A DNA stretch of 64,000 nt, taken from the NCBI GenBank assembly GCA_964538485.1, contig CAZIHJ010000004.1, forward strand, positions 5,836-69,835, read 5' to 3'. Origin of the DNA: an uncultured Chitinophagales bacterium. GTDB taxonomy: Bacteria; Bacteroidota; Ignavibacteria; UBA10030; UBA6906. The first letter of the stretch is position 1, and every line of letters starts with the position of its first letter. Positions 50,837-64,000 of this stretch are shown in pieces. The translations under genes and the position numbers were made by a program. The notes below the pieces were generated by a model that saw nothing but the letters and a program-made list of their open reading frames with translations, made no database searches and had not been told where the DNA came from.

Positions 50837-52219
50837 CTACTCATCGCCCGTCAAGATCATCAATCCGGGAGCATTGAATTTCACCCAATACGCCTTCCCC
50901 GGTTCGATCGTGGGCACGGAAACAATCCCGCTGGAATATCCATAGAATGGTGAAGAACGAATACCGGGAGGTGTTGTGACAACATCGCCTGTGTCAACAG
51001 AAGCTGAGATCGATCCAATAATATTCCATCCGGCGACTACCGGTATGGAGTCAGCAAGAATGGGATCTCCAATAATAGGGTTGATTCCTGCTGATCCAAA
51101 TTTTGCCCAATAACCCTCGCCGTTTTGCAGTCGGGTTTGGGGCACATATCCACTGGCAGGATTGAATGAGAAAGCCGTACTTGAGGCGGCTCCGGGATAT
51201 AACTGATGCAATGAATCATCAGCATTGAGCACAGGATGCGAGATCATATTCCACCCATTTTGCAGCGACACGGAAATGGTGAAGTTGACAGAGAATGTCC
51301 TTGTGGAGCTGTAAGGTCCCCAACTGCTTGGGCCGATCCCCGCACGCACTCTCCACCAGTATGTTTGTTGATGCTGCAATCCGTTCATCACTGTCATTGT
51401 ATCTGTCAATGTGGAATCGACGGCTGGAGCGTTAAATAGTGAATCTGTTGAGACCTCCAGCCAGTACGCGTTCATGCCGGCGACTTGGCGCCAGACAAAC
51501 TGGACTGAATTCGATGTGATCACATCTGCGTTAACCGGAATAACAAGGAGCGGTTGAGCGATCATCGGAGTGGTGGTGAAACTCCTTGTCTCCGAGAAAG
51601 CGCTCGAGAGCGGGCTCCCGATCGAACGGACACGCCAGAAATACTCTGTAGAATATGCCAACGGGTTGGTCTGAAATGTCGTATCAACAATGCCGACTTC
51701 ATCAACAACAAGAGAAGAAAACAGAGTATCCAGACACACCTGGAGATGGTAGGATGTTGCTCCGGAGGAAGTCAGCCACCGAAGCAGTGCCGACAATGGA
51801 ATTCCTGTTGCGTTATCTGCGGGAGCAACAAGGGATGGTTGTTCAGCGGGAACAGTCGCGAGAACTCCGTAGGAATAATGAACAGGTCCGCCCAAATCAA
51901 TCTGTCTCAGCCGATAGTACCAGACCCCGGGAGCCGCGTTCGAATCTGTGAACGCATAGTTGTGAGGAGTGCTGGTTGTGCCGTTTCCAGGGATGAACGT
52001 TCCGGGGAGAGTTTGATAATTTGCCTGAGAATTTGCAGAACGCTGAATCTCAAATCCGAAATTCGTGATCTCAGTCAGCGTCGTCCAGTTGAGATGAACG
52101 AGGGTGTGATTAACCGGAGTCGCGGAGAAACTGGAGAGATTGATTGTCGCCGAAGCAGTCACCGGGAGATGCAACAGCAAAAGAATCACCAGAGAACATC
52201 TCATGAAAGGAACTCGCAT
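50837..52219 (-). CDS. Secreted protein with two FN3-like domains and a C-terminal ~120-aa tandem-repeat domain shared with two other proteins in the window
   Basis: Start at MRVPFMRCSLVILLLLHLPVTASA. FN3-like (...GATSYHLQVCLDTLFSSLVVDE...YFWRVRS...). C-terminal GWNMISHPV...GEGYWAKF...AGWNIIGSIS...GKAYWVKFNAPGLMIL. Confidence 0.6.
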   Translation of the reverse strand: MRVPFMRCSLVILLLLHLPVTASATINLSSFSATPVNHTLVHLNWTTLTEITNFGFEIQRSANSQANYQTLPGTFIPGNGTTSTPHNYAFTDSNAAPGVWYYRLRQIDLGGPVHYSYGVLATVPAEQPSLVAPADNATGIPLSALLRWLTSSGATSYHLQVCLDTLFSSLVVDEVGIVDTTFQTNPLAYSTEYFWRVRSIGSPLSSAFSETRSFTTTPMIAQPLLVIPVNADVITSNSVQFVWRQVAGMNAYWLEVSTDSLFNAPAVDSTLTDTMTVMNGLQHQQTYWWRVRAGIGPSSWGPYSSTRTFSVNFTISVSLQNGWNMISHPVLNADDSLHQLYPGAASSTAFSFNPASGYVPQTRLQNGEGYWAKFGSAGINPIIGDPILADSIPVVAGWNIIGSISASVDTGDVVTTPPGIRSSPFYGYSSGIVSVPTIEPGKAYWVKFNAPGLMILTGDE

Positions 52220-52235
52220 GCAGTACTCCAGAGGG

Positions 52236-53510
52236 CTATTTCCTCTTGACGAACACGTAGATTTCCATTCCCGGGACCACCACATCAGTCTGCAGACCAT
52301 TCCATCGCCTTAGCTGATCAACTGTAACGTCGTACTTCTTGGCAATGGTATTGATCGATTCAGCGCGTTTGACGGTATGGACGGTCAGTTCTCCTTCGTC
52401 CACTATGGGACTTTGCGCTTGTTGCGTTGCTCGTCGCGTACTACGCCGCTGCCTGCCTGTACTTGTTGATGGCTGTTGTGTCCCTGTCTGTGGCGGTGAA
52501 ACCGTTTGACGTTGTGGCGTTGTGGTTGTTTGTCCTGGTCGTTGCTGCGGCGTCACCGGAGGGCGACCGGTAGCCACCGGCGGGGTGGTGATCGGTTGTG
52601 GAATTACCTGAGGGGCGGGCGTAAGACGCTCGACGAGACGATCCAATCCTCTCACGAGATTCGGTTTGACAACAACAACGGTTGATGAAGTTGAGGTCTT
52701 CAGAAGGTAGTTGGTATCTGCGGGTGCGAGGGAATAAAGTTCCATTTTTGTCCCCCGTGCGCCCATCACCTCCAGCTCGTACTTTGGTCTGGTTTTGATG
52801 ATCATGGGTGTATCGATAAAAGCTTCTGCCTGAAGTCTGGTAAGAGAGGCAATCGTCTGGGCGACGACATCGTGGGGAATGCGTGTCGTGCGTGAGACCC
52901 ATTCGCTTCCCTCTCTCCTCAGTTCGAATCTTCTTGAACCGCTCGCGAGAGAAAAAGCTGAAATGGAATCGGCGGAGGTTGTATAGACAAGCCGTTGTCT
53001 CCAATCACGAAGCTCCCAATTCAGAATGGAAGGCGTCAAACCCTGGGCAAGATACACTGTATCGGACAGCGGCGTACGAACAAACGCACTACCGGGCGTC
53101 GGAGCCGCCTTACCGACTATGACGGCGATGCTCTTTCCTTCATCATTCACGAATGCGACGTTTGTACCCTGGTCATCAACCTCAAATACACGCTGCTTGT
53201 CGGGATTGGATGACACCAGGCCCGTAAGCCGGAATGCAGCGATACCCTCTTGCAACAATCGCACCTTTCCCGGATCTGCCGAAGCAAATAACGGTTCAGT
53301 GATCTTCCACTCGCCTCGTACTTTTTCCAGTCTCACAAACCCCTGCACGCGACTGATGTCAATGCGGACAATTCTCGCCGGATCCAACACGTATTGTGTG
53401 GTCGGTACTCTGTAGGTAGTGTCTTCCACTGCCTCCGGACCTTGAAGGAAATATGCCACGGCCAGGAGGACGAGCAGAACAACAAGAAGGATAAGATTTG
53501 ATCGTTTCAT
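52236..53510 (-). CDS. DUF4340-like membrane-anchored protein with Pro/Thr/Gln-rich linker and C-terminal LysM domain
   Basis: Start at MKRSNLILLVVLLVLLAVAYFL (TM anchor). Position and architecture match the DUF4340 partner of GldG-type ABC systems. C-terminal LysM HTVKRAESINTIAKKYDVTVDQLRRWNGLQTDVVVPGMEIYV. Confidence 0.6.
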   Translation of the reverse strand: MKRSNLILLVVLLVLLAVAYFLQGPEAVEDTTYRVPTTQYVLDPARIVRIDISRVQGFVRLEKVRGEWKITEPLFASADPGKVRLLQEGIAAFRLTGLVSSNPDKQRVFEVDDQGTNVAFVNDEGKSIAVIVGKAAPTPGSAFVRTPLSDTVYLAQGLTPSILNWELRDWRQRLVYTTSADSISAFSLASGSRRFELRREGSEWVSRTTRIPHDVVAQTIASLTRLQAEAFIDTPMIIKTRPKYELEVMGARGTKMELYSLAPADTNYLLKTSTSSTVVVVKPNLVRGLDRLVERLTPAPQVIPQPITTPPVATGRPPVTPQQRPGQTTTTPQRQTVSPPQTGTQQPSTSTGRQRRSTRRATQQAQSPIVDEGELTVHTVKRAESINTIAKKYDVTVDQLRRWNGLQTDVVVPGMEIYVFVKRK

Positions 53511-53518
53511 GGTTGCAT

Positions 53519-55828
53519 TCAAAAACTGTGTTTGTGCCGGCGACGCCGTGCGGCCTTGACCAACATCCATAACATTCCTCCGGCGATGACCACGCCCGGG
53601 GGTCCAATGAAGCTGAAGTACTTTGCAAAACTCTTTGTCTCTTCAGACACTTCTTCCAGCGGATGGGGGGCAACATCCCGCGATCGCACAGCAGTGAGAA
53701 CGGTATCCCCAACAATCCAATCGACAAGATTCACCGCAAACGCAACGTTGTCATAGTCTTGGACATGCTCATCAAGCACAAAATCCCCATCAGCCACCAC
53801 ACACAGTCGCGTAGGCTTGCTCCGAGGAATAAACTGGCCGGCCGTCATGCGTCCAACAAGATCGCGTAACGATGGATCACGAATGTCGGCAAAAGCGCTT
53901 CTAAAACTTCCTTCGAGTACCGCACCGAGCGGAATGCTTGTCTCGGAAAAATCGGCCGGAGACACCGTTGCACGCGGAGAAATGCTGACGCTATCAGCCG
54001 GGTAACGGCGGGAGAGTGTTGACGAAGTAACAACAACATGGTCCGTGACTCCACGAATACTTGCCAGCCGCATATCCAGAGAACTGACAAACGGAAACTT
54101 CACAGGGCCTGTGTTTCTCAGTAAGTCCCTATCACGCGCAAAGTCGGCCGCGACCGGATAAAATGGATACAGCACCTCGGATGCGTATGTATGCTGTTCA
54201 ATTCCCTCGCGAAACAGAAATGGCGCGCATCGACCATCCGCGACAATGTCTTTGCGGATGATCCACCCGTAGACGTCGAACATGTCATCCAGGTTGACAT
54301 CCATTGTACGGGCATATTTCATTTCCCCGTCAGGCACGACACTATTCATAAAAAAGGCCACCCTGCCACCACGCATAATATACTGATCAAGTTGGACCTT
54401 TTCGGTGTCGCTGAACCTTCGACCGGGGGCAATAACTAATATTGCCGCATACTGTTCGGGAGTAATGGCCCCGTCGCCGAGTTGTACAGGTGCAACAACA
54501 TGCTGACGTGCGAGTGCAGCGAGAAAAGTCGTCATGCGGTCGGCTCCTGCTCCTCCGCTATTTCCCAGAACTCCAATGGTCTGGGGCTCCAATGTTGTGA
54601 TCTTCTTAAGACTGCCGGTTATTTCATATTCCAATCGTTCGAGAGACTGCACAACGGGAAGTCTTTCGACTTTATCCGCGTACGAAAACGCCAATCCGGC
54701 GTATGCCTTCGTACTCTGATACCGATTGTTCTTGATCACCTTCACCTGTACTGGTGTAATGCCTTCCCGCAACGCTTCCTGTTCTTCGCCCGGACCGCCG
54801 AGCGGATTGATGAACTTGTAATGGAATCTGCCGTTTGAGTATGCGCGGAATTCTTCCAGCAACTGTTGGACGCTACGCCTATGATTATGGTACGGCGGGG
54901 GAAGCTCCGGGCTGAAATACGCACGAACAAGAAATGTATCATCAAGGGATGCGAGGAATTTCTTCGTGACATCAGATAAGGTATAGGCCTTGTTCTCGGT
55001 CATGTCCAATCGGACAAAATTTCTCACTGATAGCAGATTGACAAACACCAGTATTCCGATAATAATGCCCGCACGCATGAACCGTTGCCCGAGACGGAAA
55101 TCCTTCCAGCGCCACAAACTCTGTCCGGTTTCCTGAGTCGCACTCACCGTAGCAAGAAGGACGAACAGGACAATAAGTGAGAGATAGTAAATGATGTCCC
55201 GTGAGTCTACAACGCCGCGCGCAAGACCTGAAAAATGGTGCCCGATTCCCAAATATTCGACTGTGGAAACAAGTCCAAGAGGCACGTACGCCAACACTTT
55301 GTCCAATGCAAAGAGCATGAATCCAATAACGAAGCCAAGAATTAATGCGACGATCTGGTTGTCACTCAAGCTTGACCCGAAGATCCCCGCGGCAACGAAA
55401 ACTCCGCCCAGCAACACAAGGCCAAGATAGCCACCAACCAGCGCTCCGGTATCGAGATCACCGAGGGAACCAACCGTGACCACATAGAGCAACGTCGGTA
55501 CCAGAGCACAGCAGATCAGTACCCAGGCAGCAAGGAACTTTCCCACAACAATTTGACCTATGGCAATGGGCTTCGTTTTGATAACTTCGAATGTCCCCGC
55601 CCTCTTTTCCTCGGCGATGAGTCGCATCGTTATGGCCGGCGCAAATACCAGGAGCAACATCGGGGCAATCTCAAAAAATGTCGACAGCGAGGCCACGTTT
55701 GCAAGGAAGAGATTTGCCGAGACATACGCTCCCCCCAGGAACAGGAATATGACAATAAAAATATATGCAAGGCTCGAATCGAAATACGAGCGAAGCTCCT
55801 TTCGCAATATGACGCCGATGTTTCTCAC
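53519..55828 (-). CDS. ABC-2 type permease (GldF-like) fused to a GldG-like auxiliary domain
   Basis: GTG start at 55828 (VRNIGVILRKELRSYF...) directly after the upstream ATPase stop. ~270-aa 6-TM ABC-2 permease, then a ~530-aa GldG-like periplasmic domain and a C-terminal TM. Confidence 0.65.
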   Translation of the reverse strand: MRNIGVILRKELRSYFDSSLAYIFIVIFLFLGGAYVSANLFLANVASLSTFFEIAPMLLLVFAPAITMRLIAEEKRAGTFEVIKTKPIAIGQIVVGKFLAAWVLICCALVPTLLYVVTVGSLGDLDTGALVGGYLGLVLLGGVFVAAGIFGSSLSDNQIVALILGFVIGFMLFALDKVLAYVPLGLVSTVEYLGIGHHFSGLARGVVDSRDIIYYLSLIVLFVLLATVSATQETGQSLWRWKDFRLGQRFMRAGIIIGILVFVNLLSVRNFVRLDMTENKAYTLSDVTKKFLASLDDTFLVRAYFSPELPPPYHNHRRSVQQLLEEFRAYSNGRFHYKFINPLGGPGEEQEALREGITPVQVKVIKNNRYQSTKAYAGLAFSYADKVERLPVVQSLERLEYEITGSLKKITTLEPQTIGVLGNSGGAGADRMTTFLAALARQHVVAPVQLGDGAITPEQYAAILVIAPGRRFSDTEKVQLDQYIMRGGRVAFFMNSVVPDGEMKYARTMDVNLDDMFDVYGWIIRKDIVADGRCAPFLFREGIEQHTYASEVLYPFYPVAADFARDRDLLRNTGPVKFPFVSSLDMRLASIRGVTDHVVVTSSTLSRRYPADSVSISPRATVSPADFSETSIPLGAVLEGSFRSAFADIRDPSLRDLVGRMTAGQFIPRSKPTRLCVVADGDFVLDEHVQDYDNVAFAVNLVDWIVGDTVLTAVRSRDVAPHPLEEVSEETKSFAKYFSFIGPPGVVIAGGMLWMLVKAARRRRHKHSF

Positions 55829-56790
55829 TGACTGGTTTGTCCCGTGGTGATACGATGAAAGATATCCTCGATTTGAACCCGGCCGCGGTGGAGATGGACA
55901 AGCACCCAACCTTCCTGCACACATAATGCAAACAGTTGCCGGCGCATGTTCCCTTCCCGGCGTGACTCCACATAGAACCCCTTTGTGCGTTCCCCCTCTT
56001 CGTGTTGTGAAAGCGGGGAAACAAGCACGACACCGTCCAACGCCCGCATCAACCGTTCCGCGTTCTCGGTGTCATAACCATCCGGAAGGTCGATCCCGAC
56101 AAAGAACTTCTGCATACCCTCAAACTGCAACGAGAGATCTCCGATTGCTGAATCCGCGAGCTTCTTGCCATGATCAATAATGATCACTCTATCACACACG
56201 GCCTGCACCTCCGAAAGAGTGTGCGTGGAAAGAATGACTGTTTTTTCCTTGCCAACCTGCCGGATGTGCTGGCGGAATTCAAGAATCTGATTTGGATCAA
56301 GTCCATTTGTTGGTTCATCGAGAATCAACACCTGCGGGAGATGGAGCATCGCCTGAGCAAGCCCGACACGCTGGCGATACCCTTTGGAGAGCTTGCCAAT
56401 CTCCACATGCTTCACCGTTTGGAGGTCAAATGCCTCCACCACGGCCTTGATACGACGCGGGATGATCTTTCCCGGTACCTCCTGGAGTCGCGCAATGAAT
56501 TCCAGATACTCGATAACATCCATATCCGGATAAAGCGGGTTGTCTTCCGGCAGATACCCGATCAATTTTCGCACCTCGTACGGATCCTTCTGGACATCCT
56601 TGCCGTGAACTTCCACCGAACCACTCGACGGGGAGAGAAATCCGGTGATCATGCGGGCAACTGTGGTCTTCCCCGCCCCGTTCGGTCCGAGCAATCCTAC
56701 GATTTCTCCCGGTTGCACCTTGAATGAGAGGTTCTCGACCGCTTTGGTGGTGCCGTAATATTTCGTAAGTGATGTGACAACAACAGACAT
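55825..56790 (-). CDS. ABC transporter ATP-binding protein (GldA-like)
   Basis: 321 aa. Walker A GPNGAGKTT, signature LSKGYRQRVGLA, Walker B LILDEPTNGLD. Confidence 0.85.
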   Translation of the reverse strand: MSVVVTSLTKYYGTTKAVENLSFKVQPGEIVGLLGPNGAGKTTVARMITGFLSPSSGSVEVHGKDVQKDPYEVRKLIGYLPEDNPLYPDMDVIEYLEFIARLQEVPGKIIPRRIKAVVEAFDLQTVKHVEIGKLSKGYRQRVGLAQAMLHLPQVLILDEPTNGLDPNQILEFRQHIRQVGKEKTVILSTHTLSEVQAVCDRVIIIDHGKKLADSAIGDLSLQFEGMQKFFVGIDLPDGYDTENAERLMRALDGVVLVSPLSQHEEGERTKGFYVESRREGNMRRQLFALCVQEGWVLVHLHRGRVQIEDIFHRITTGQTSQ

Positions 56791-56797
56791 ATCTTGG

Positions 56798-58171
56798 CTA
56801 CCTCACACGAACAAATTCAATACGCCGGTTCTGCTGCCGGCCTTCATCCGTATCATTTGGTGCAATCGGTCGGACAAAACCGAATCCCTTCGTTCCAATC
56901 CTGTTGGCGTCCACTCCGCGCGCAACCAACCATTCCTTCACGGAGTTTGCCCTCGCTTGTGACAGCTTGAGATTGTACGAGGCCTTGCCAATATTATCCG
57001 TGTGGCCGTGAATTTCCACCTCAATACCCGGATTGTCTACCAATGTCCCCATCGCCTGCATCAAGATTGGCTCGGATTCGGGCTTAATCCGGGCACTGTT
57101 GAACTCGAACACTACGCCCTCGAGGACAATTGCCTTCCCGATTTCCACTTCCAGCGTCTGTTTCTTCGCGACGTCATCCTCGGCATTTAGCGGATTCGTT
57201 CCGCGGCGCACTTCCACACCGTCTTCGACTGTTCCGGCATCGGTGTCAATATTCAGCGGATCTGTCTTGTACGTCAGGACTTCATCACCGTCACTCAAAC
57301 TGTCTCCATCGGTATCCGGCCGCAACGGATTGGTACGATGCGTGAGCACTTCCGCTCCGTCGGTCAGCCTGTCCCCGTCTGTATCAGGATTCAATGGATC
57401 TGTGCCATGCACCTTCACTTCATCCCCATCGGTCAGACCATCCCCATCGGTATCAGGATTCAATGGATCCGTCTTGTAGCGGCGGACTTCTTCACCATCG
57501 GTCAAACGATCACCATCAGTATCGGGATTATGTGGATCGGTCCGGATCTTTCTCTCTTCTTTGGTAAGCAATCCGTCCTTGTCCGGATCAGTATCCTCAT
57601 CCTCTCCAACGACAAGTACGCCGATAAGAAAATTCCAGTACCCCGATTTACTCTCGGAATCCAGTCCGGTTATTCCTTTTACAAAAATATTATTATAGCC
57701 CGCATTGAGATCCACCGCAACACGATTGTCCACCATGAATTGTGCCCCGACACCAAGGGGAACAAATCCGGCCCGCCCGCTTTCTTTCACCACGGATCCA
57801 TTTGCCGGTCGCCGTTCCTGGTCATAGTACATTACACCGGCACCGACATAGAGGTATGGACTCCATCGGGAGGTCACCAGGGGTGAGAACACGAGTCGAT
57901 AATCGGCGGGAATCACCTGCGTCTTGAATCTCTTTGCCTTTAATTCGCCGAACTCGATGCCAATTTCACCACGCAACCGCGGTGCCAGCGGGTGCCGCAG
58001 AAACGCGCGGGCGTCATATCCACTTCCGCTCTGTGATGCTTCAGAGTTGCTGAGGATTCCTCCGACTTTCACCCCGACGTTCAGACCATCGTCGCGGAAC
58101 TGTGCTGATACTTCAGGAACCAATCCTATCCAGCATACGCACACCGTAATCAGCAATACCTGTAAACGCAT
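56798..58171 (-). CDS. OmpA family protein with N-terminal beta-barrel and thrombospondin type 3 (calcium-binding) repeats
   Basis: Start at MRLQVLLITVCVCWIGLVPEVSAQ (ATG at 58169-58171). Eight DxDxDGxxDxxE/D repeats (DTDGDGLTDGDEV...). C-terminal OmpA domain (...IEVEIHGHTDNIGKASYNLKLSQARANSV...RRIEFVRV). Confidence 0.8.
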   Translation of the reverse strand: MRLQVLLITVCVCWIGLVPEVSAQFRDDGLNVGVKVGGILSNSEASQSGSGYDARAFLRHPLAPRLRGEIGIEFGELKAKRFKTQVIPADYRLVFSPLVTSRWSPYLYVGAGVMYYDQERRPANGSVVKESGRAGFVPLGVGAQFMVDNRVAVDLNAGYNNIFVKGITGLDSESKSGYWNFLIGVLVVGEDEDTDPDKDGLLTKEERKIRTDPHNPDTDGDRLTDGEEVRRYKTDPLNPDTDGDGLTDGDEVKVHGTDPLNPDTDGDRLTDGAEVLTHRTNPLRPDTDGDSLSDGDEVLTYKTDPLNIDTDAGTVEDGVEVRRGTNPLNAEDDVAKKQTLEVEIGKAIVLEGVVFEFNSARIKPESEPILMQAMGTLVDNPGIEVEIHGHTDNIGKASYNLKLSQARANSVKEWLVARGVDANRIGTKGFGFVRPIAPNDTDEGRQQNRRIEFVRVR

Positions 58172-58518
58172 GACTCGCGTTTTCCTTTCTCGAAGGGTTT
58201 GAAACACTACATTTCCAAAGCTCTGGTCTCCTGATTCGTTACCCATCGGCCAATCCGGCACAACGGCTTGGGGCAACCAAGAAACACGTTTTGGGGAATA
58301 ATTGGGATTCAGGACACTCTCGCCCATACTCGGATTAACAGCACACGAACCCCCCGGAACAGGAGATTTCATGCCAATAATTCTTCTATGATATTGCGAG
58401 AATAAAGAACCTGAGAGGGGAAAAGCTACGGTGTAAGGTGTTGAAAAGTTTCTTGGAAATCAAGTCCTCTTTCTAACTCGATCGGGCCCTATGAACGAGG
58501 AAATCATCCCTAACAAAA

Positions 58519-61500
58519 CTACCTCAACAACAGCATTTTCCTTGATTCCGAGAGGGTAATCCCGACCCCTCCATCCGGAACAAGGTCTAACCTATAGAAG
58601 TAGAGGCCACTGGCAACGGCATTGTTGTTATCATTTGTGCCATCCCATTCAACCGTGTATGTGCCCTTGGAAACCTCCCGCTTCACCAGCGTCCTGATTA
58701 AGCGGCCAAGAATGTCATACACACGGAGTGTTGCGTTTCCATCGATGGGAATTCCATACCGGACGGTTGTAACCGGATTGAATGGGTTGGGATAGTTCTG
58801 ATCAAGCGAAAAAGCAATCGGGCTGTCTTCAATGCCCTGAAGTCGCAACGAGATCGACTGCGGATACTCCACAAGGACCTCACCCTCGTGCAGGAGCGAG
58901 ATCACCCGATTGCCAACAACGAGCCACGCCGCCATAGGGTGTTCTTGTTCCCCCCACCGTAATGAAATTGGAAACGTAGCGGCGGAAATTTTCAACGTAG
59001 TTTCTTTGTGATCCGCACCAGCAAATTCCATCATCGTGTTCGATTCATAACGTATATCAAATGCGCCATCAGGGGGTAATGGTGGAAGCTCGTACGATTC
59101 AGAGGTGAAACGCCCCTCCGGGTTGCGCCCGTACAACAGTGATTGGGTTCGACCTTCTGCATCTTCCAGAATAAGAGAATTCGCCGCTGGTGGAGAAGCC
59201 GGTCCCGGTCGCGATGCGGGTCCCGATGATTGGTTTGCGAAAAGAACACCACTCTGTGATATCTTCACCCAATATCCCAAGGCCGGCTTCAAACTATCCG
59301 TCGCATAGTAGCTTCCGCCATACCCAAAGAATGACGTCCGAATAATACTGTCCGGTGATGAAGAAACACTGGCCACGCTCACGGGAACCGAGAGGGAACC
59401 TATCAGATTCCACCCGGCAGTGACAGCAATAGTGTCCGCAGAATAGGGATAGCCGGTGAAATTAAGCACAGGGTTCGTGAGTTTTGTCCAGTATCCTCTG
59501 CCATTACTCAATGTATCGCTTCTGAAATACTGATTCTGAAAACTATAGCTGAAAGGAATGATATAGGGACAAAGGACATTTACGGGAAGTGAATACAGCC
59601 GCCAGCTTGAGCCAAGATTTGCCTGAATACGGATAGCTCCCCCCGTTCCGGTTCCCGTACCCGAGAGATTCATCGAATCGACCGAAGTAATACCGTTATG
59701 CGTAAAGTAAACTTTCCCGGAGGCGAGACCCGGATTCAGAGGTGCATATATCACAGCCAATTTGAAACTGTCATTGGCATTGACGCTAAACGTGGGAGGG
59801 ACAACGGTGTAGTTTGCATTGTTGGTCACTGCCGTAACATTCAGGGCATTCACCTGTGCAAGATTTCGCACAATAACCGTGTCAACAAGCCGACATCCAA
59901 CTGCGATCGATCCGAAGGTGAGCATGTTACTGTTTGTGCCGAAACGCGGGGCTTCATATTTTATGACACTGTATACCGATCCGTCTTCTGTTTCCGAATA
60001 CCCTGCAACATAAACATTGCCGAGGGCATCAACGACGATCCCCTGCGGTTCGTCATTCAATTGCGCCGGATCATCATAGCGGGTAACCCATTGTTGCACT
60101 CCGGCAGGACTGTATCGGACCGTCGCATAGTCATAGCCAGACTTGAACAAGAAACTGTACCCGGTGACATAGACGTTTCCTTTGGAATCGAGGGCAACAT
60201 CGGCACCTATATCATCGTCATTTTCACCACTATTGTAACGGACGTTCCATTGCTGGACGCCGGAGGAATTGTACTTTATTGTAAGGAAATCGTATCCCAT
60301 GCCGGTGGCCTGGCTTCCCCCGGTCACGAACACGTTGCTTGATGCGTCAAGCTTCAGCATGGTTGGAACATCACTGGCATTTCCGGATCCTGAATAACGC
60401 ACAGCCCATTGCTGGACGCCGCTGCTGTTGTATCGAATTGTAGCGTAGTCAAATCCGGTTCCGATTCCCTCACTCGCCCCGGTTACAAACACGTTGTTGG
60501 TCGCATCCACCGCGATGGCGTATGCTTGATCCACACCATTCGCCGGCCCGCTATAACGCGAAACCCATTGTTGAGTCCCCGACGTATTATACTTCACCGT
60601 TGCAAAGTCAGATGTTCCCCCCGCCCCAACACTCGTACCAGTAACATACACATTTCCCCCTGCATCAAGCGCCAAATCCAAAGCGTTGTCAGTGGAATCA
60701 CCGGGTCCGTTATAAGAACCAGCCCATAATTGCGTTCCCGTGGTTTGATACTTGATCGTCAGGAAATCATTGCCACTGGCCGGGTCGAACCTGGCCCCGG
60801 TAACGTAGACATTGCCTGATCCGTCGACAGCGATGTCAGTTCCTTGATCGATCGCGCTCCCCCCACTTGCATATCTCACTGCCCAGATCTGGGCTCCATT
60901 CACATTGTATTTGACAGTTGCGATATCATAGCCCGTTGACACTCCGAAACTCGTTCCAGTCACATACGCATTGCCAAAGTTATCGATAACAATTGCCGAA
61001 ACGAAATCCTCAGCGTCACCAGTACCATTATAACGGGCGACCCACTGTGGAACGCCGGCAGAATTATACTTGACTGTCGCATAGTCACTCTGACTTTTTT
61101 GGTCGAAACTTGTTCCCGTGACATAAATATTCCCCGACGGATCGAGTGCCACCGCCGCTGCTTCATCGGCTGAGTTCCCCGGGCCATTATAACGTGTTGC
61201 CCACTGCTGCACTCCAACCGAACTGTATTTTACCGTAGCAATGTCTTCGTCGGTCACCAAACCATAGCTTGTCCCAGCCACGTATACATTTCCGAATCCG
61301 TCTACTGTCACCGCCGCTCCTGCATCATAGTCGGTGATATCCCCAGTGTAGCGTGCAACCCATGATTGCAGACCGAGAGAATTGTATTTCACGGTCGCAT
61401 AATCTTCAAATGTTCCTGAACCCGTGCTTGATCCCGTGACATAGACATTGCCTCCCGCATCGACAAATACCGACGCAGCGGCATCAAACGAGCTTCCCGG

Positions 61501-62868
61501 ACCATCATATGTGGCCACCCACCGGATCCCGCCGCTACTACTGTACTTGACGGTCAGGTAATCATCCCCCGAAAGCAGTGCGTAACTCGTTCCTGTGATG
61601 TACACGTTGCGAGACCCGTCGATGGTGATTGCGGCGGGAAGTTCATCGGATTCTTCCGGGGAATTATATCGCACAGACCAATCGGTTCCTCCGAATGCAT
61701 CGTACTTTATCGTTGCATAGTCTGCGTCGAAGTTGGTGTTATAGCTCGCTCCCGTCACATAGGTGTTTCCCCCAACATCGACTGTCATCGCAGCAACAGC
61801 ATCATAGTCGTTTCCCGGGCCGTCATATCGCCTGACCCACACCTGGCTTCCAAGAAAGCTGTACTTGATGGTAACAAAATCCTCGAGAGTCTCTTCACCA
61901 TAGCTCGTACCACTCACATACACGCTTCCCGAAATATCAATCCCCAGTCCTGCGGGAATATCAAGGTCATTCACTCCCCCGTCATACCGTCCATACCAGA
62001 GTTCAGTCCCCGCCGCATTGTACTTGATGGTGACAATATCGGCATCCGTAAGAACTCCGTAGCTGGTTCCCGTAACATGCACATTACCGGCATTGTCCAC
62101 TTTGAGGCCAAGACCGGCATCGTAGTCATTTGCCGGACCGTCATACCGTGCTACCCATTGCCCAACGCCACTTGCACTGTACTTTATGGTAAGAACATCC
62201 TCATCGGTATCAATTCCAAAACTGGAACCGGTCACGTAGACATTCCCGGAAGCATCAACAACAATCGCGTTCGCTCCATCATAATCATTTCCAGGGCCGT
62301 TATATGAGGCAATCCATTGCTGGACCCCGGCACTATTGTACTTGATTGTTACTGCGTCATAGCCGCTGAAAATCCCAGTTGTGTAGCCCGCGACGTAGAC
62401 ATTGCCGCTGGCATCAAGCGTAATAGCTGAAGCGGCATCAAGCGATGGCGCCAAACCGGATGAATAGTGTACCACCCACGCCGCAAGAACCGAGTCAACG
62501 ATGGATTCCGAAATTCCCGCAGCACGCGCAGCATCGCGGTCTATCGCAGGACGCTTGTTGATGAGGTGGGACCATGGCTTGCCTCTCTCTGGACCATGTC
62601 TCTCGTTGAGCTTGTCGCGTCGCACCAGAGCTTGCATCGCAGCAGGCAGTTGACCGCGTTTCCACTTTTCTTCGAATCGCCTTCCCTGTTGTTGCTTTTC
62701 AGGGCCAAGGGGGGTAACGCGCGGAGCTCTGCTGGATCGCTCTGCTTCAGTCCGGCTCCCACCTGCATGCAACACACTTACTGCAGTGTTGGCCATCAGA
62801 CAAAGAGTCACAAGCACATACCCCATCGACCGGCACCCGGAGTTGGCCCATGACGTCCTTGGTTTCAT
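58519..62868 (-). CDS. Large secreted SBBP beta-propeller-repeat protein with T9SS C-terminal sorting domain
   Basis: Start chosen at MKPRTSWANSGCRSMGYVLVTLCLMANTAVSVLHAGG (avoids overlap with the downstream gene). More than 20 SBBP-type repeats (D(A/G)SGNVYVTG(T/S)S...D(Y/F)(A/L)T(V/I)KY...G...W). The shared tandem-repeat domain is at about nt 59307-59682. Extreme C-terminus NYPNPFNPVTTVRYGIP...LRVYDILGRLIRTL...GLYFYRL is a T9SS type-A CTD. Confidence 0.8.
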   Translation of the reverse strand: MKPRTSWANSGCRSMGYVLVTLCLMANTAVSVLHAGGSRTEAERSSRAPRVTPLGPEKQQQGRRFEEKWKRGQLPAAMQALVRRDKLNERHGPERGKPWSHLINKRPAIDRDAARAAGISESIVDSVLAAWVVHYSSGLAPSLDAASAITLDASGNVYVAGYTTGIFSGYDAVTIKYNSAGVQQWIASYNGPGNDYDGANAIVVDASGNVYVTGSSFGIDTDEDVLTIKYSASGVGQWVARYDGPANDYDAGLGLKVDNAGNVHVTGTSYGVLTDADIVTIKYNAAGTELWYGRYDGGVNDLDIPAGLGIDISGSVYVSGTSYGEETLEDFVTIKYSFLGSQVWVRRYDGPGNDYDAVAAMTVDVGGNTYVTGASYNTNFDADYATIKYDAFGGTDWSVRYNSPEESDELPAAITIDGSRNVYITGTSYALLSGDDYLTVKYSSSGGIRWVATYDGPGSSFDAAASVFVDAGGNVYVTGSSTGSGTFEDYATVKYNSLGLQSWVARYTGDITDYDAGAAVTVDGFGNVYVAGTSYGLVTDEDIATVKYSSVGVQQWATRYNGPGNSADEAAAVALDPSGNIYVTGTSFDQKSQSDYATVKYNSAGVPQWVARYNGTGDAEDFVSAIVIDNFGNAYVTGTSFGVSTGYDIATVKYNVNGAQIWAVRYASGGSAIDQGTDIAVDGSGNVYVTGARFDPASGNDFLTIKYQTTGTQLWAGSYNGPGDSTDNALDLALDAGGNVYVTGTSVGAGGTSDFATVKYNTSGTQQWVSRYSGPANGVDQAYAIAVDATNNVFVTGASEGIGTGFDYATIRYNSSGVQQWAVRYSGSGNASDVPTMLKLDASSNVFVTGGSQATGMGYDFLTIKYNSSGVQQWNVRYNSGENDDDIGADVALDSKGNVYVTGYSFLFKSGYDYATVRYSPAGVQQWVTRYDDPAQLNDEPQGIVVDALGNVYVAGYSETEDGSVYSVIKYEAPRFGTNSNMLTFGSIAVGCRLVDTVIVRNLAQVNALNVTAVTNNANYTVVPPTFSVNANDSFKLAVIYAPLNPGLASGKVYFTHNGITSVDSMNLSGTGTGTGGAIRIQANLGSSWRLYSLPVNVLCPYIIPFSYSFQNQYFRSDTLSNGRGYWTKLTNPVLNFTGYPYSADTIAVTAGWNLIGSLSVPVSVASVSSSPDSIIRTSFFGYGGSYYATDSLKPALGYWVKISQSGVLFANQSSGPASRPGPASPPAANSLILEDAEGRTQSLLYGRNPEGRFTSESYELPPLPPDGAFDIRYESNTMMEFAGADHKETTLKISAATFPISLRWGEQEHPMAAWLVVGNRVISLLHEGEVLVEYPQSISLRLQGIEDSPIAFSLDQNYPNPFNPVTTVRYGIPIDGNATLRVYDILGRLIRTLVKREVSKGTYTVEWDGTNDNNNAVASGLYFYRLDLVPDGGVGITLSESRKMLLLR

Positions 62869-62899
62869 CCCATTCATCCTCATCACCATCATCCTGTAC

Positions 62900-64000
62900 C
62901 TATTTCGAAATCCTGTTGTGGCGGTCCGGTGGCCGTATGAGAGAATCATGATCTCCCTGCAATCGATTGCGCCTGGAGGAAACGGGAGACGGAAGAATCA
63001 GGACCCCGTTCTGACTGACTTTCACCCAATACCCTCGTGCAGGGACGAGCGTGTCCGCCGCCACATACCCGGCATCATATTCAAGATAAGATGACACCAC
63101 AATGCCTGCAGGAACCTGGACAATAGAACTTGTGTCAACGGGCTCCGTAAGAGTGCCAATGAGATTCCACCCGGTAAAAACAGCAAGAGTATCACTTTGC
63201 ACAGCATGGCCGACAATGCTTACCTGTTGCAATGAATCAAACTTCAGCCAGTATCCGGCACCGATAGTGAGGGTGTCCTGGGGCTCGTATCCCACTCCAT
63301 TCACAAATGCATATGCGAGGGACGAAGAGGACGGGAAAATGCTGCTCTTCCTGGCATCGCTCACATTCAGCGGAAGACTCACAAGATTCCATGATTCCTG
63401 CACCGTGTATTGCCCTGTCAGTTCCTCCATGGTGAGAAAATTCCAAAGGGTGGAGTATGCACTGACGCCTGCAAAGCTCCTTGCCCGCACACGCCAGTAG
63501 TGCTTTGTCTGTTCCTGGAGTGCGGCAACCTGACGGGAAGTGGTTGTCAACACCGAATCGTTGACAACGAGGGTGGTAAACAAGGAATCTGTTGCCACCT
63601 GCAGGTGATATGATGTTGCCCCAGCCGAAGAGTTCCATGAGATGGTCGGTGTGAGAGGCTGGTGGATGGCTCCATCAGCAGGAGCGATGGGTACGGGAAC
63701 TGGCGGTGGGGCGGTTGTGGTGTAGCCAAGCACTCGAATATCATCCACATAAAACCCGTCCCGCTCTTCACCGCCATCTGCCGACAATCGAAACCGTATC
63801 TTCACAGATTGCCCCGCGTAGGGTGTAAGGTCAACAAACGCAGGCATCCATGTTACTCCGGGGCTGTAACTATCATAACCCCACGTTCCTGTTGTTTGCT
63901 TGCCACCACTTCTTCCTGAACCAGGATGTGCAAGTGTCGGCCTCAGGTTCACCCAGGTTGACCCTGAATTGGTACTGATTTCTACTGTTGCAAAATCCCA
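62900..64000 (-). CDS. Secreted protein (N-terminus beyond window) with FN3-like domain and the shared C-terminal tandem-repeat domain
   Basis: Frame is open from nt 64000; the listed ORF start at 63952 is only an internal GTG. Contains ...GFYVDDIRVLGY, an FN3-like domain (GATSYHLQVATDSLF...HYWRVRARS), then ESWNLVSLPLNV...GAGYWLKF...TGWNLIGTL...ARGYWVKVSQNGVLIL. Confidence 0.6.
   Translation of the reverse strand, partial: WDFATVEISTNSGSTWVNLRPTLAHPGSGRSGGKQTTGTWGYDSYSPGVTWMPAFVDLTPYAGQSVKIRFRLSADGGEERDGFYVDDIRVLGYTTTAPPPVPVPIAPADGAIHQPLTPTISWNSSAGATSYHLQVATDSLFTTLVVNDSVLTTTSRQVAALQEQTKHYWRVRARSFAGVSAYSTLWNFLTMEELTGQYTVQESWNLVSLPLNVSDARKSSIFPSSSSLAYAFVNGVGYEPQDTLTIGAGYWLKFDSLQQVSIVGHAVQSDTLAVFTGWNLIGTLTEPVDTSSIVQVPAGIVVSSYLEYDAGYVAADTLVPARGYWVKVSQNGVLILPSPVSSRRNRLQGDHDSLIRPPDRHNRISK

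Follow-up and report, generated by a model that had tools for sequence, protein, structure and literature searches.

What is the repeated domain near the C-termini of three neighbouring secreted proteins at this locus, and what does it do there? The window analysed, 64,000 nucleotides of contig CAZIHJ010000004.1 from an uncultured Chitinophagales bacterium, holds three minus-strand open reading frames (ORFs) in which a first-pass annotation had seen a common C-terminal tandem repeat. Protein A (50837..52300) is FN3-like. Protein B (58519..62949, 1476 amino acids, aa) combines SBBP repeats, a choice-of-anchor-D-like immunoglobulin (Ig) domain and a type A C-terminal sorting domain (CTD) of the T9SS (type IX secretion system). 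Protein C (62903..64000+) is partial, its frame being open to the window end, and contains InhA-like MAM and FN3-like domains. A local hidden Markov model (HMM) of the repeat halves finds the module once in each of these three proteins and in no other ORF of the window. The shared domain is real: each protein has two homologous repeats, here called R1 and R2, and the similarity between A, B and C is positional.

The module, encoded throughout on the minus strand, occupies 50840..51271 in A (aa 344-487; R1 51062-51271, R2 50840-51061), 59230..59625 in B (aa 1109-1240; R1 59440-59625, R2 59230-59439) and 62987..63409 in C (R1 63203-63409, R2 62987-63202). At 132-144 aa it is longer than the ~120 aa first proposed, and its repeats measure ~62-74 aa, with a Trp-to-Trp period of 64-75 aa, instead of ~55 aa. 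The original spans were shifted or truncated by ~20-25 aa, that of A (50840-51193) missing the first GWNMIS and that of B ending before the final GYWVK. The motifs themselves were described correctly, with the variant SWRLYS in repeat 1 of B. Each repeat starts with W-N-[LMI]-[IV]-[SG], has an invariant proline ~20 residues further on and closes with G-Y-W-x-K, after which comes a further strand. Conservation reaches 80% or more at 33 positions across 252 unique members of the family; the consensus of R1 reads GWNlvSvP...LFPtAxSxxAFaF...GYvxxDTLxNGxGYWLKF...itG and that of R2 DTIxVxaGWNLIGSIS...PPGIvtSxFFGYxxGYxxaDTLxPGKGYWVKVsqxGxLIL.

The similarity does not come from low-complexity Gly/Ser/Trp composition. 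All 15 pairs among the six repeat halves outscore each of 500 composition-preserving shuffles (z = 5.4-30.5), and the R1 and R2 profiles align to each other with an hhalign probability of 99.2% (E 6e-20). Across proteins, R2 resembles R2 and R1 resembles R1 more than R1 resembles R2 within one protein, so the duplication predates the paralogues. The module is demonstrably an autonomous, all-beta domain of ~140 aa, non-catalytic by its composition, that was born by internal duplication of a ~70-aa unit.

AlphaFold2, run on aa 341-487 of A with a 44-sequence alignment, gives a model of mean predicted local distance difference test score (pLDDT) 97.6 and predicted template modelling score 0.90, all-beta with 13 strands (6+7), and an independent run on the module of B reproduces the same 6+7 pattern at pLDDT 82-94. 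The models show the two halves packed into one rigid body. Comparison with solved structures found no neighbour of the module in the PDB, so that the predicted fold is apparently unprecedented among them. It does not match the seven-stranded Ig-like beta-sandwich of solved T9SS CTDs.

Could the module belong to a family already described under another name? Searches of Pfam-A (2025 copy) and NCBIfam 20.0 gave no match on it in A, B or C at E<=1, and 44 diverse isolated modules, searched at E<=10, returned scattered noise and no consistent family. One name recurred, choice_anch_R (NF041539), weakly, short of its curated cutoff, and in five of the 44 members (best E 0.0033); we treat it as noise, as it was absent at E<=1 from chimeras of the first 30 of these members. 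The choice-of-anchor-D-like region of B is a separate domain upstream of the module (aa 1000-1085). The T9SS type A CTD (Por_Secre_tail, TIGR04183 / PF18962) matched the module neither in the three window proteins nor in the 44 members, and when R1 or R2 was compared by hhalign with an alignment of CTDs taken from the same proteins, the probability was 0.1-0.2%. The FN3, Ig-like, PKD and Big_2 domains are equally excluded, as the module has neither a match to their Pfam HMMs nor an Ig-like sandwich fold; the first-pass annotation was right to set the module apart from the CTD, FN3, PKD and Big_2. A profile search of PDB sequences found no relative, our literature search found no published description, and source databases label the members as 'hypothetical protein' or by another domain of the protein. 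We are therefore nearly certain that the domain is both real and unannotated. The family is new, but its kind is familiar: an accessory module at the C-terminal end of secreted proteins.

The family is large. Exhaustive HMMER searching with the half-repeat profile retrieved 8,423 cluster representatives (50% identity) at E<=1e-3, of which 5,020 remained at E<=1e-10 and 596 at E<=1e-30; a word-indexed search with a single module sequence gave only two relatives and is misleading beside the exhaustive profile search. A pattern scan of one genome per species yielded 439 confirmed stretches, and 77 loci were retrieved. All 77 come from metagenome-assembled genomes (MAGs) labelled Ignavibacteria/Ignavibacteriae, Bacteroidota, or 'uncultured' Chlorobiaceae/Chitinophagales, and many module paralogues per genome are common in them. 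The lineage specificity suggested at first needs revising: the domain is not peculiar to the source organism, and the matches found here lie in MAGs that carry Ignavibacteria, Bacteroidota or Chlorobi labels. Among the accessory domains of an entire bacterial class it ranks with the commonest. Module genes are often neighbours, as B and C are, with 2-4 of them within 12 kb in ~22 of the 77 loci by hand count (e.g. L004, L008, L020, L021, L024, L033). This adjacency suggests local expansion through gene duplication.

Copy number and position are tightly constrained. Of the 152 proteins analysed, 147 have exactly two repeats, as do 108 of 109 ORFs of the genomic loci, and a few proteins have two complete modules. 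The distance from module to stop codon falls into three discrete classes (38, 32 and 32 genomic ORFs; 85, 41 and 19 database proteins). Class 1 proteins, about 40-50% of members, have no more than ~40 aa after the module, with an optional short basic tail; A and C belong here. In class 2, ~120 aa follow, consisting of a short linker 'RIRIVPTSELPPPPP' and then a type A CTD. In class 3, to which B belongs, ~235 aa follow, made up of a linker, a second domain of ~115 aa containing ELPPxPP, which we call X, and then the CTD. Pfam confirmed Por_Secre_tail in class 2 and 3 examples and its absence in class 1 examples. Across the three classes the module is demonstrably the final folded domain of proteins exported through Sec, whether or not they have a T9SS CTD.

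The arrangement at the end of B differs from the one first described. In B, the module was thought to be followed by a linker and then the CTD; what had been read as linker is largely the X domain. The actual linker is a Pro/Ser/Ala-rich stretch of 15 aa, SSGPASRPGPASPPA (59185..59229, minus strand), of low pLDDT (58) in the structure model of B. It is followed by X (58837..59184, minus strand; aa 1256-1371, ~116 aa), which is beta-rich, modelled at pLDDT 83-97 and recognised by a local HMM at E 2e-37, and which has a conserved ELPPLPP motif at aa 1287-1293 (59071..59091, minus strand). The CTD itself (QNYPNPFNP ... KMLLLR) is encoded at 58522..58803 on the minus strand. In A the module is the extreme C-terminus, the protein stopping 3 residues past the last strand, with its stop codon at 50837-50839. 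In C, a 28-aa basic, non-conserved tail, PVSSRRNRLQGDHDSLIRPPDRHNRISK, follows the module (62903..62986, minus strand).

X is conserved in all class 3 relatives, has no Pfam or NCBIfam match and appears as a confident separate domain in the AlphaFold2 model of B. Its motif pattern is LxIxDxxGxxQxLYF...YELPPLPPxGxFDVRF...YPLxIxW, and it accompanies the module in 35 of its 39 occurrences in the retrieved loci. Class 2 proteins keep only 'RIRIVPTSELPPPPP' of it. A motif [YS]-E-L-P-P-x-P-P, with its two central prolines invariant, lies upstream of the CTD in class 2 and 3 proteins and might mark the region of CTD cleavage or of anchor attachment.

How closely is the module tied to the CTD? Local HMMs detect a CTD in 63 of the 102 complete module ORFs and none in the other 39, and 42 further CTD ORFs in the same loci have no module; since each is found without the other, module and CTD are independent elements. 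The modules of the three classes have no strongly class-specific residue, and the nearest neighbour of a module lies in the same class in 71% of cases, compared with 38% by chance. The classes are therefore fairly stable, yet CTD and X have repeatedly been gained and lost. Finally, the module can do without any passenger, since P0124 consists of a signal peptide and the module alone and P0011 of a signal peptide and two modules. These stand-alone forms argue for an autonomous function.

The passengers are diverse, with 64 Pfam families among 60 complete module proteins, including S8 and M14 peptidases, an endo/exonuclease-phosphatase, an LCAT-like lipase, FG-GAP, PD40, SBBP, BNR/sortilin, Laminin_G_3, SdrD_B and Flg_new_2. 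Complete-looking class 1 proteins start with an ordinary Sec signal peptide and lack both a lipobox and a CTD. A lipoprotein anchor was considered for them and rejected, since none of the 69 class 1 proteins starting with Met has a lipobox. Of 122 CTD-less members, 17 terminate precisely 10 residues past GYWxK, 14 of them with Lys or Arg, usually Arg. The type A CTDs of the same alignment all end in Lys or Arg, against a background of 30% in non-module ORFs. Other CTD-less members have short, non-conserved tails rich in Lys/Arg, Pro, Ser and Ala, with Lys plus Arg at 19% compared with 5.6% in the protein bodies, and 86% of the tails are net positive. The tails of orthologues of C differ from it in sequence but are likewise rich in Lys/Arg.

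What, then, is the role of the module? We propose, tentatively, that it is a lineage-specific, non-catalytic, membrane-proximal module for retention or docking at the cell surface. Since the same module both ends CTD-less exoenzymes and occurs alone, retention or docking is the most economical single function. In Porphyromonas, PorU removes the CTD and links the new C-terminus to anionic lipopolysaccharide (LPS; PMC8545088, PMC4804311). By analogy with the T9SS of Porphyromonas gingivalis, in CTD-bearing members a PorU sortase would remove the CTD and attach the new C-terminus to anionic LPS, which would leave the module as the domain nearest the membrane in the mature surface protein. Where there is no CTD, the module, with a sequence that is essentially the same, would keep the exported enzyme on the envelope by non-covalent binding. 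The putative ligand would be a lineage-specific envelope component, either a glycan or LPS or a protein receptor. Candidate binding elements are the conserved Trp/Tyr, Asn and Lys residues, which GWN and GYWxK in each half contribute as symmetric pairs.

Several points weigh against retention or docking. Most of the conserved residues (Gly, Pro, Trp, Tyr and Phe) could be purely structural, and the conserved aromatic and polar ones may simply make up the core; the basic tails of class 1 proteins could be a neutral translation of GC-rich DNA; and class 1 proteins might stay in the periplasm. Furthermore, in a few members (P0045, P0091, P0088 and P0097) the module is N-terminal, as in P0045 and P0091, or is followed by other domains, so that the C-terminal rule is strong, not absolute.

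Of the other explanations, the one that survives best is that the module is an inert spacer or stalk, a rigid pedestal like the Ig, FN3 and PKD domains of T9SS cargo, which would project the passenger from the outer membrane and bind no ligand. Such a role fits the dominance of Gly, Pro and aromatics among the conserved residues, the Pro-rich linkers that adjoin the module and the FN3/Ig spacers also present in many members. Generic spacers, however, vary in copy number and position, while the module is nearly always a single two-repeat unit placed last; its occurrence behind a signal peptide and without a passenger, in P0124 and P0011, also argues against this role. Between A and its orthologue (see below) the module is, in addition, better conserved than the rest of the protein (63% identity, against 51% for the whole protein). 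On balance we regard a mere spacer as rather unlikely.

Could the module instead be an element of secretion, either an alternative sorting tag that takes CTD-less proteins through the T9SS or the type II secretion system (T2SS), or a dimerisation handle by which they ride with CTD-bearing ones? T9SS and T2SS both export folded proteins, which counts in favour of this idea. It is attractive since no route that would take class 1 proteins through the outer membrane is known: with a Sec signal but neither CTD nor lipobox, ~40-50% of members nevertheless carry typically extracellular enzymes (such as S8 and M14 peptidases, a nuclease and a lipase), and the recurrent stop 10 residues after GYWxK, mostly at Lys or Arg, recalls how CTDs end. 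On the other hand, in module proteins with a canonical CTD the module is always internal and so is unneeded there as a signal; the 42 CTD proteins of the same loci manage without it, and its profile has no similarity to that of the CTD. Melioribacter roseus, a member of the Ignavibacteria, encodes both Por-sorting-domain proteins and a T2SS (PMC3534657), and by analogy type II secretion may be a mundane route for class 1 proteins. A secretion role of the module is in our view clearly unlikely. A bolder version is a sorting or docking tag that either serves as the own export signal of CTD-less exoenzymes or pairs in the periplasm with module-bearing T9SS cargo, so that the two would be co-translocated and displayed at the surface ('hitch-hiking'). 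This is a long shot; if true, hitch-hiking would give bacteria of the Ignavibacteria type a display system of their own, comparable to cohesin and dockerin and based on a fold without a solved relative.

A carbohydrate-binding role, which had been suggested together with surface anchoring when the repeat was first noticed, would make the module a substrate-targeting carbohydrate-binding module (CBM), in which an aromatic platform in each half would attach to a polysaccharide of the environment and thereby take the enzyme to its substrate. The aromatic residues are there, but what the module is joined to is mostly proteases, along with a nuclease, a lipase, propellers and repeats of the adhesin type. 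Carbohydrate-active enzymes are rare (GH18, an apiosidase-like domain and GH53, once each), and no association with carbohydrate-active catalytic domains emerged among the 60 complete proteins. Judged from domain content, this passenger spectrum would favour a cell-associated role over substrate targeting. The module has no sequence or structural similarity to CBM families of the beta-sandwich type, such as CBM6 / CBM35, the structural similarities seen being at noise level and covering only half of it, and a fixed place beside the anchor end is unusual for substrate-binding CBMs. We consider this role improbable. Least probable of all is a removable C-terminal pro-domain or intramolecular chaperone of the PPC kind, which would aid folding or keep the enzyme latent until cleaved after export: the module is C-terminal on several secreted hydrolases and is predicted to be compact and independently folding, but it is equally common on non-enzymatic propeller- or adhesin-like proteins and exists as a stand-alone protein, there is no conserved cleavage motif upstream of it, and the Pfam scans covering it gave no PPC (PF04151) match.

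The module resembles several better-known domains in one respect or another. T9SS cargo may have an Ig-like domain ahead of its CTD (for instance the IgSF domain in gingipain RgpB); like it, the module is the final folded domain preceding the sorting domain, all-beta and non-catalytic, and it occurs on Sec-exported, multi-domain surface proteins of the Fibrobacteres-Chlorobi-Bacteroidetes superphylum. The GW or SH3b-like repeats of Listeria InlB and Ami are likewise C-terminal tandem repeats of ~70-80 aa with Gly-Trp, found on diverse surface proteins, where they serve in non-covalent retention, and our module may act in a comparable way; this is an analogy, not homology. GW modules are Gram-positive binders of lipoteichoic acid and vary in copy number, in contrast to the two repeats here, and no GW or SH3-family entry was among the Pfam matches of the 44 modules at E<=10. 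Dockerins of cellulosomal enzymes offer another possible parallel, being a small C-terminal internal duplication that many unrelated enzymes have in a single copy and that acts as a docking tag. They are, however, helical, with Ca-binding EF-hand-like repeats of ~22 aa, belong to Firmicutes and bind cohesins, whereas the module is all-beta and ~140 aa long. PPC and Haft's 'choice-of-anchor' domains (NF012200 for type D, NF041539 for type R) are also accessory beta domains near the C-terminus, upstream of alternative sorting signals; the module differs from them in having no PPC match and only the weak type R hits in five of 44 members mentioned above.

Further features of the locus complete the description of the three proteins. 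The mechanically called ORF start of A at 52300 is probably too far upstream, and the true start is probably Met28, 27 codons downstream (the extra stretch being 52220-52300). Database protein P0005 (460 aa) is identical to A from Met28 and begins MRVPFMRCSL..., a typical Sec signal peptide. With this start, the probable signal peptide of A for signal peptidase I, MRVPFMRCSLVILLLLHLPVTASA, lies at 52148..52219 on the minus strand, with a hydrophobic h-region and no lipobox. In C, cut by the window end, the InhA-like MAM fragment is accompanied by weak similarity to sortase-dependent M36/M6-type metallopeptidases. Both features suggest a large secreted metalloprotease of which C would be the C-terminal portion.

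Synteny links the window to a contig of the MAG 'Bacteroidota bacterium F1F2.bin.124' (JBJXHC010000106.1; our locus L001). The gene order common to both is OmpA/TSP3, ABC ATPase, GldF/G-like permease, DUF4340-LysM, the A orthologue and then ppk; JBJXHC010000106.1 also has the orthologues of C and B, at a distance of a few kb. Between A and B in the window, 52236-58372 on the minus strand encodes a DUF4340 plus LysM protein, a fused ABC-2 permease / ABC_transp_aux (GldF/GldG-like), an ABC ATPase (GldA-like) and an OmpA-family protein with TSP3 repeats, and this cluster has the identical order in JBJXHC010000106.1. The orthologue of A ends at the module too, so the CTD-less state of A is not a recent truncation.

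What the finding means for these bacteria can be stated at several levels. Thousands of secreted proteins of a widespread, mostly uncultured group carry an unnamed domain that has neither a family model nor a solved relative, and defining it would at once improve how genomes of Ignavibacteria and of the Kapabacteria type are annotated, in which the module forms the end of many 'hypothetical' exoproteins. A confidently predicted AlphaFold model without a neighbour in the PDB would make it an attractive target for structure determination. If the module is indeed a docking or retention tag, it would also be usable as a handle for surface display. Its placement beside, or instead of, the T9SS sorting domain makes testable how diderm bacteria export and retain exoenzymes that have neither a CTD nor a lipid anchor.
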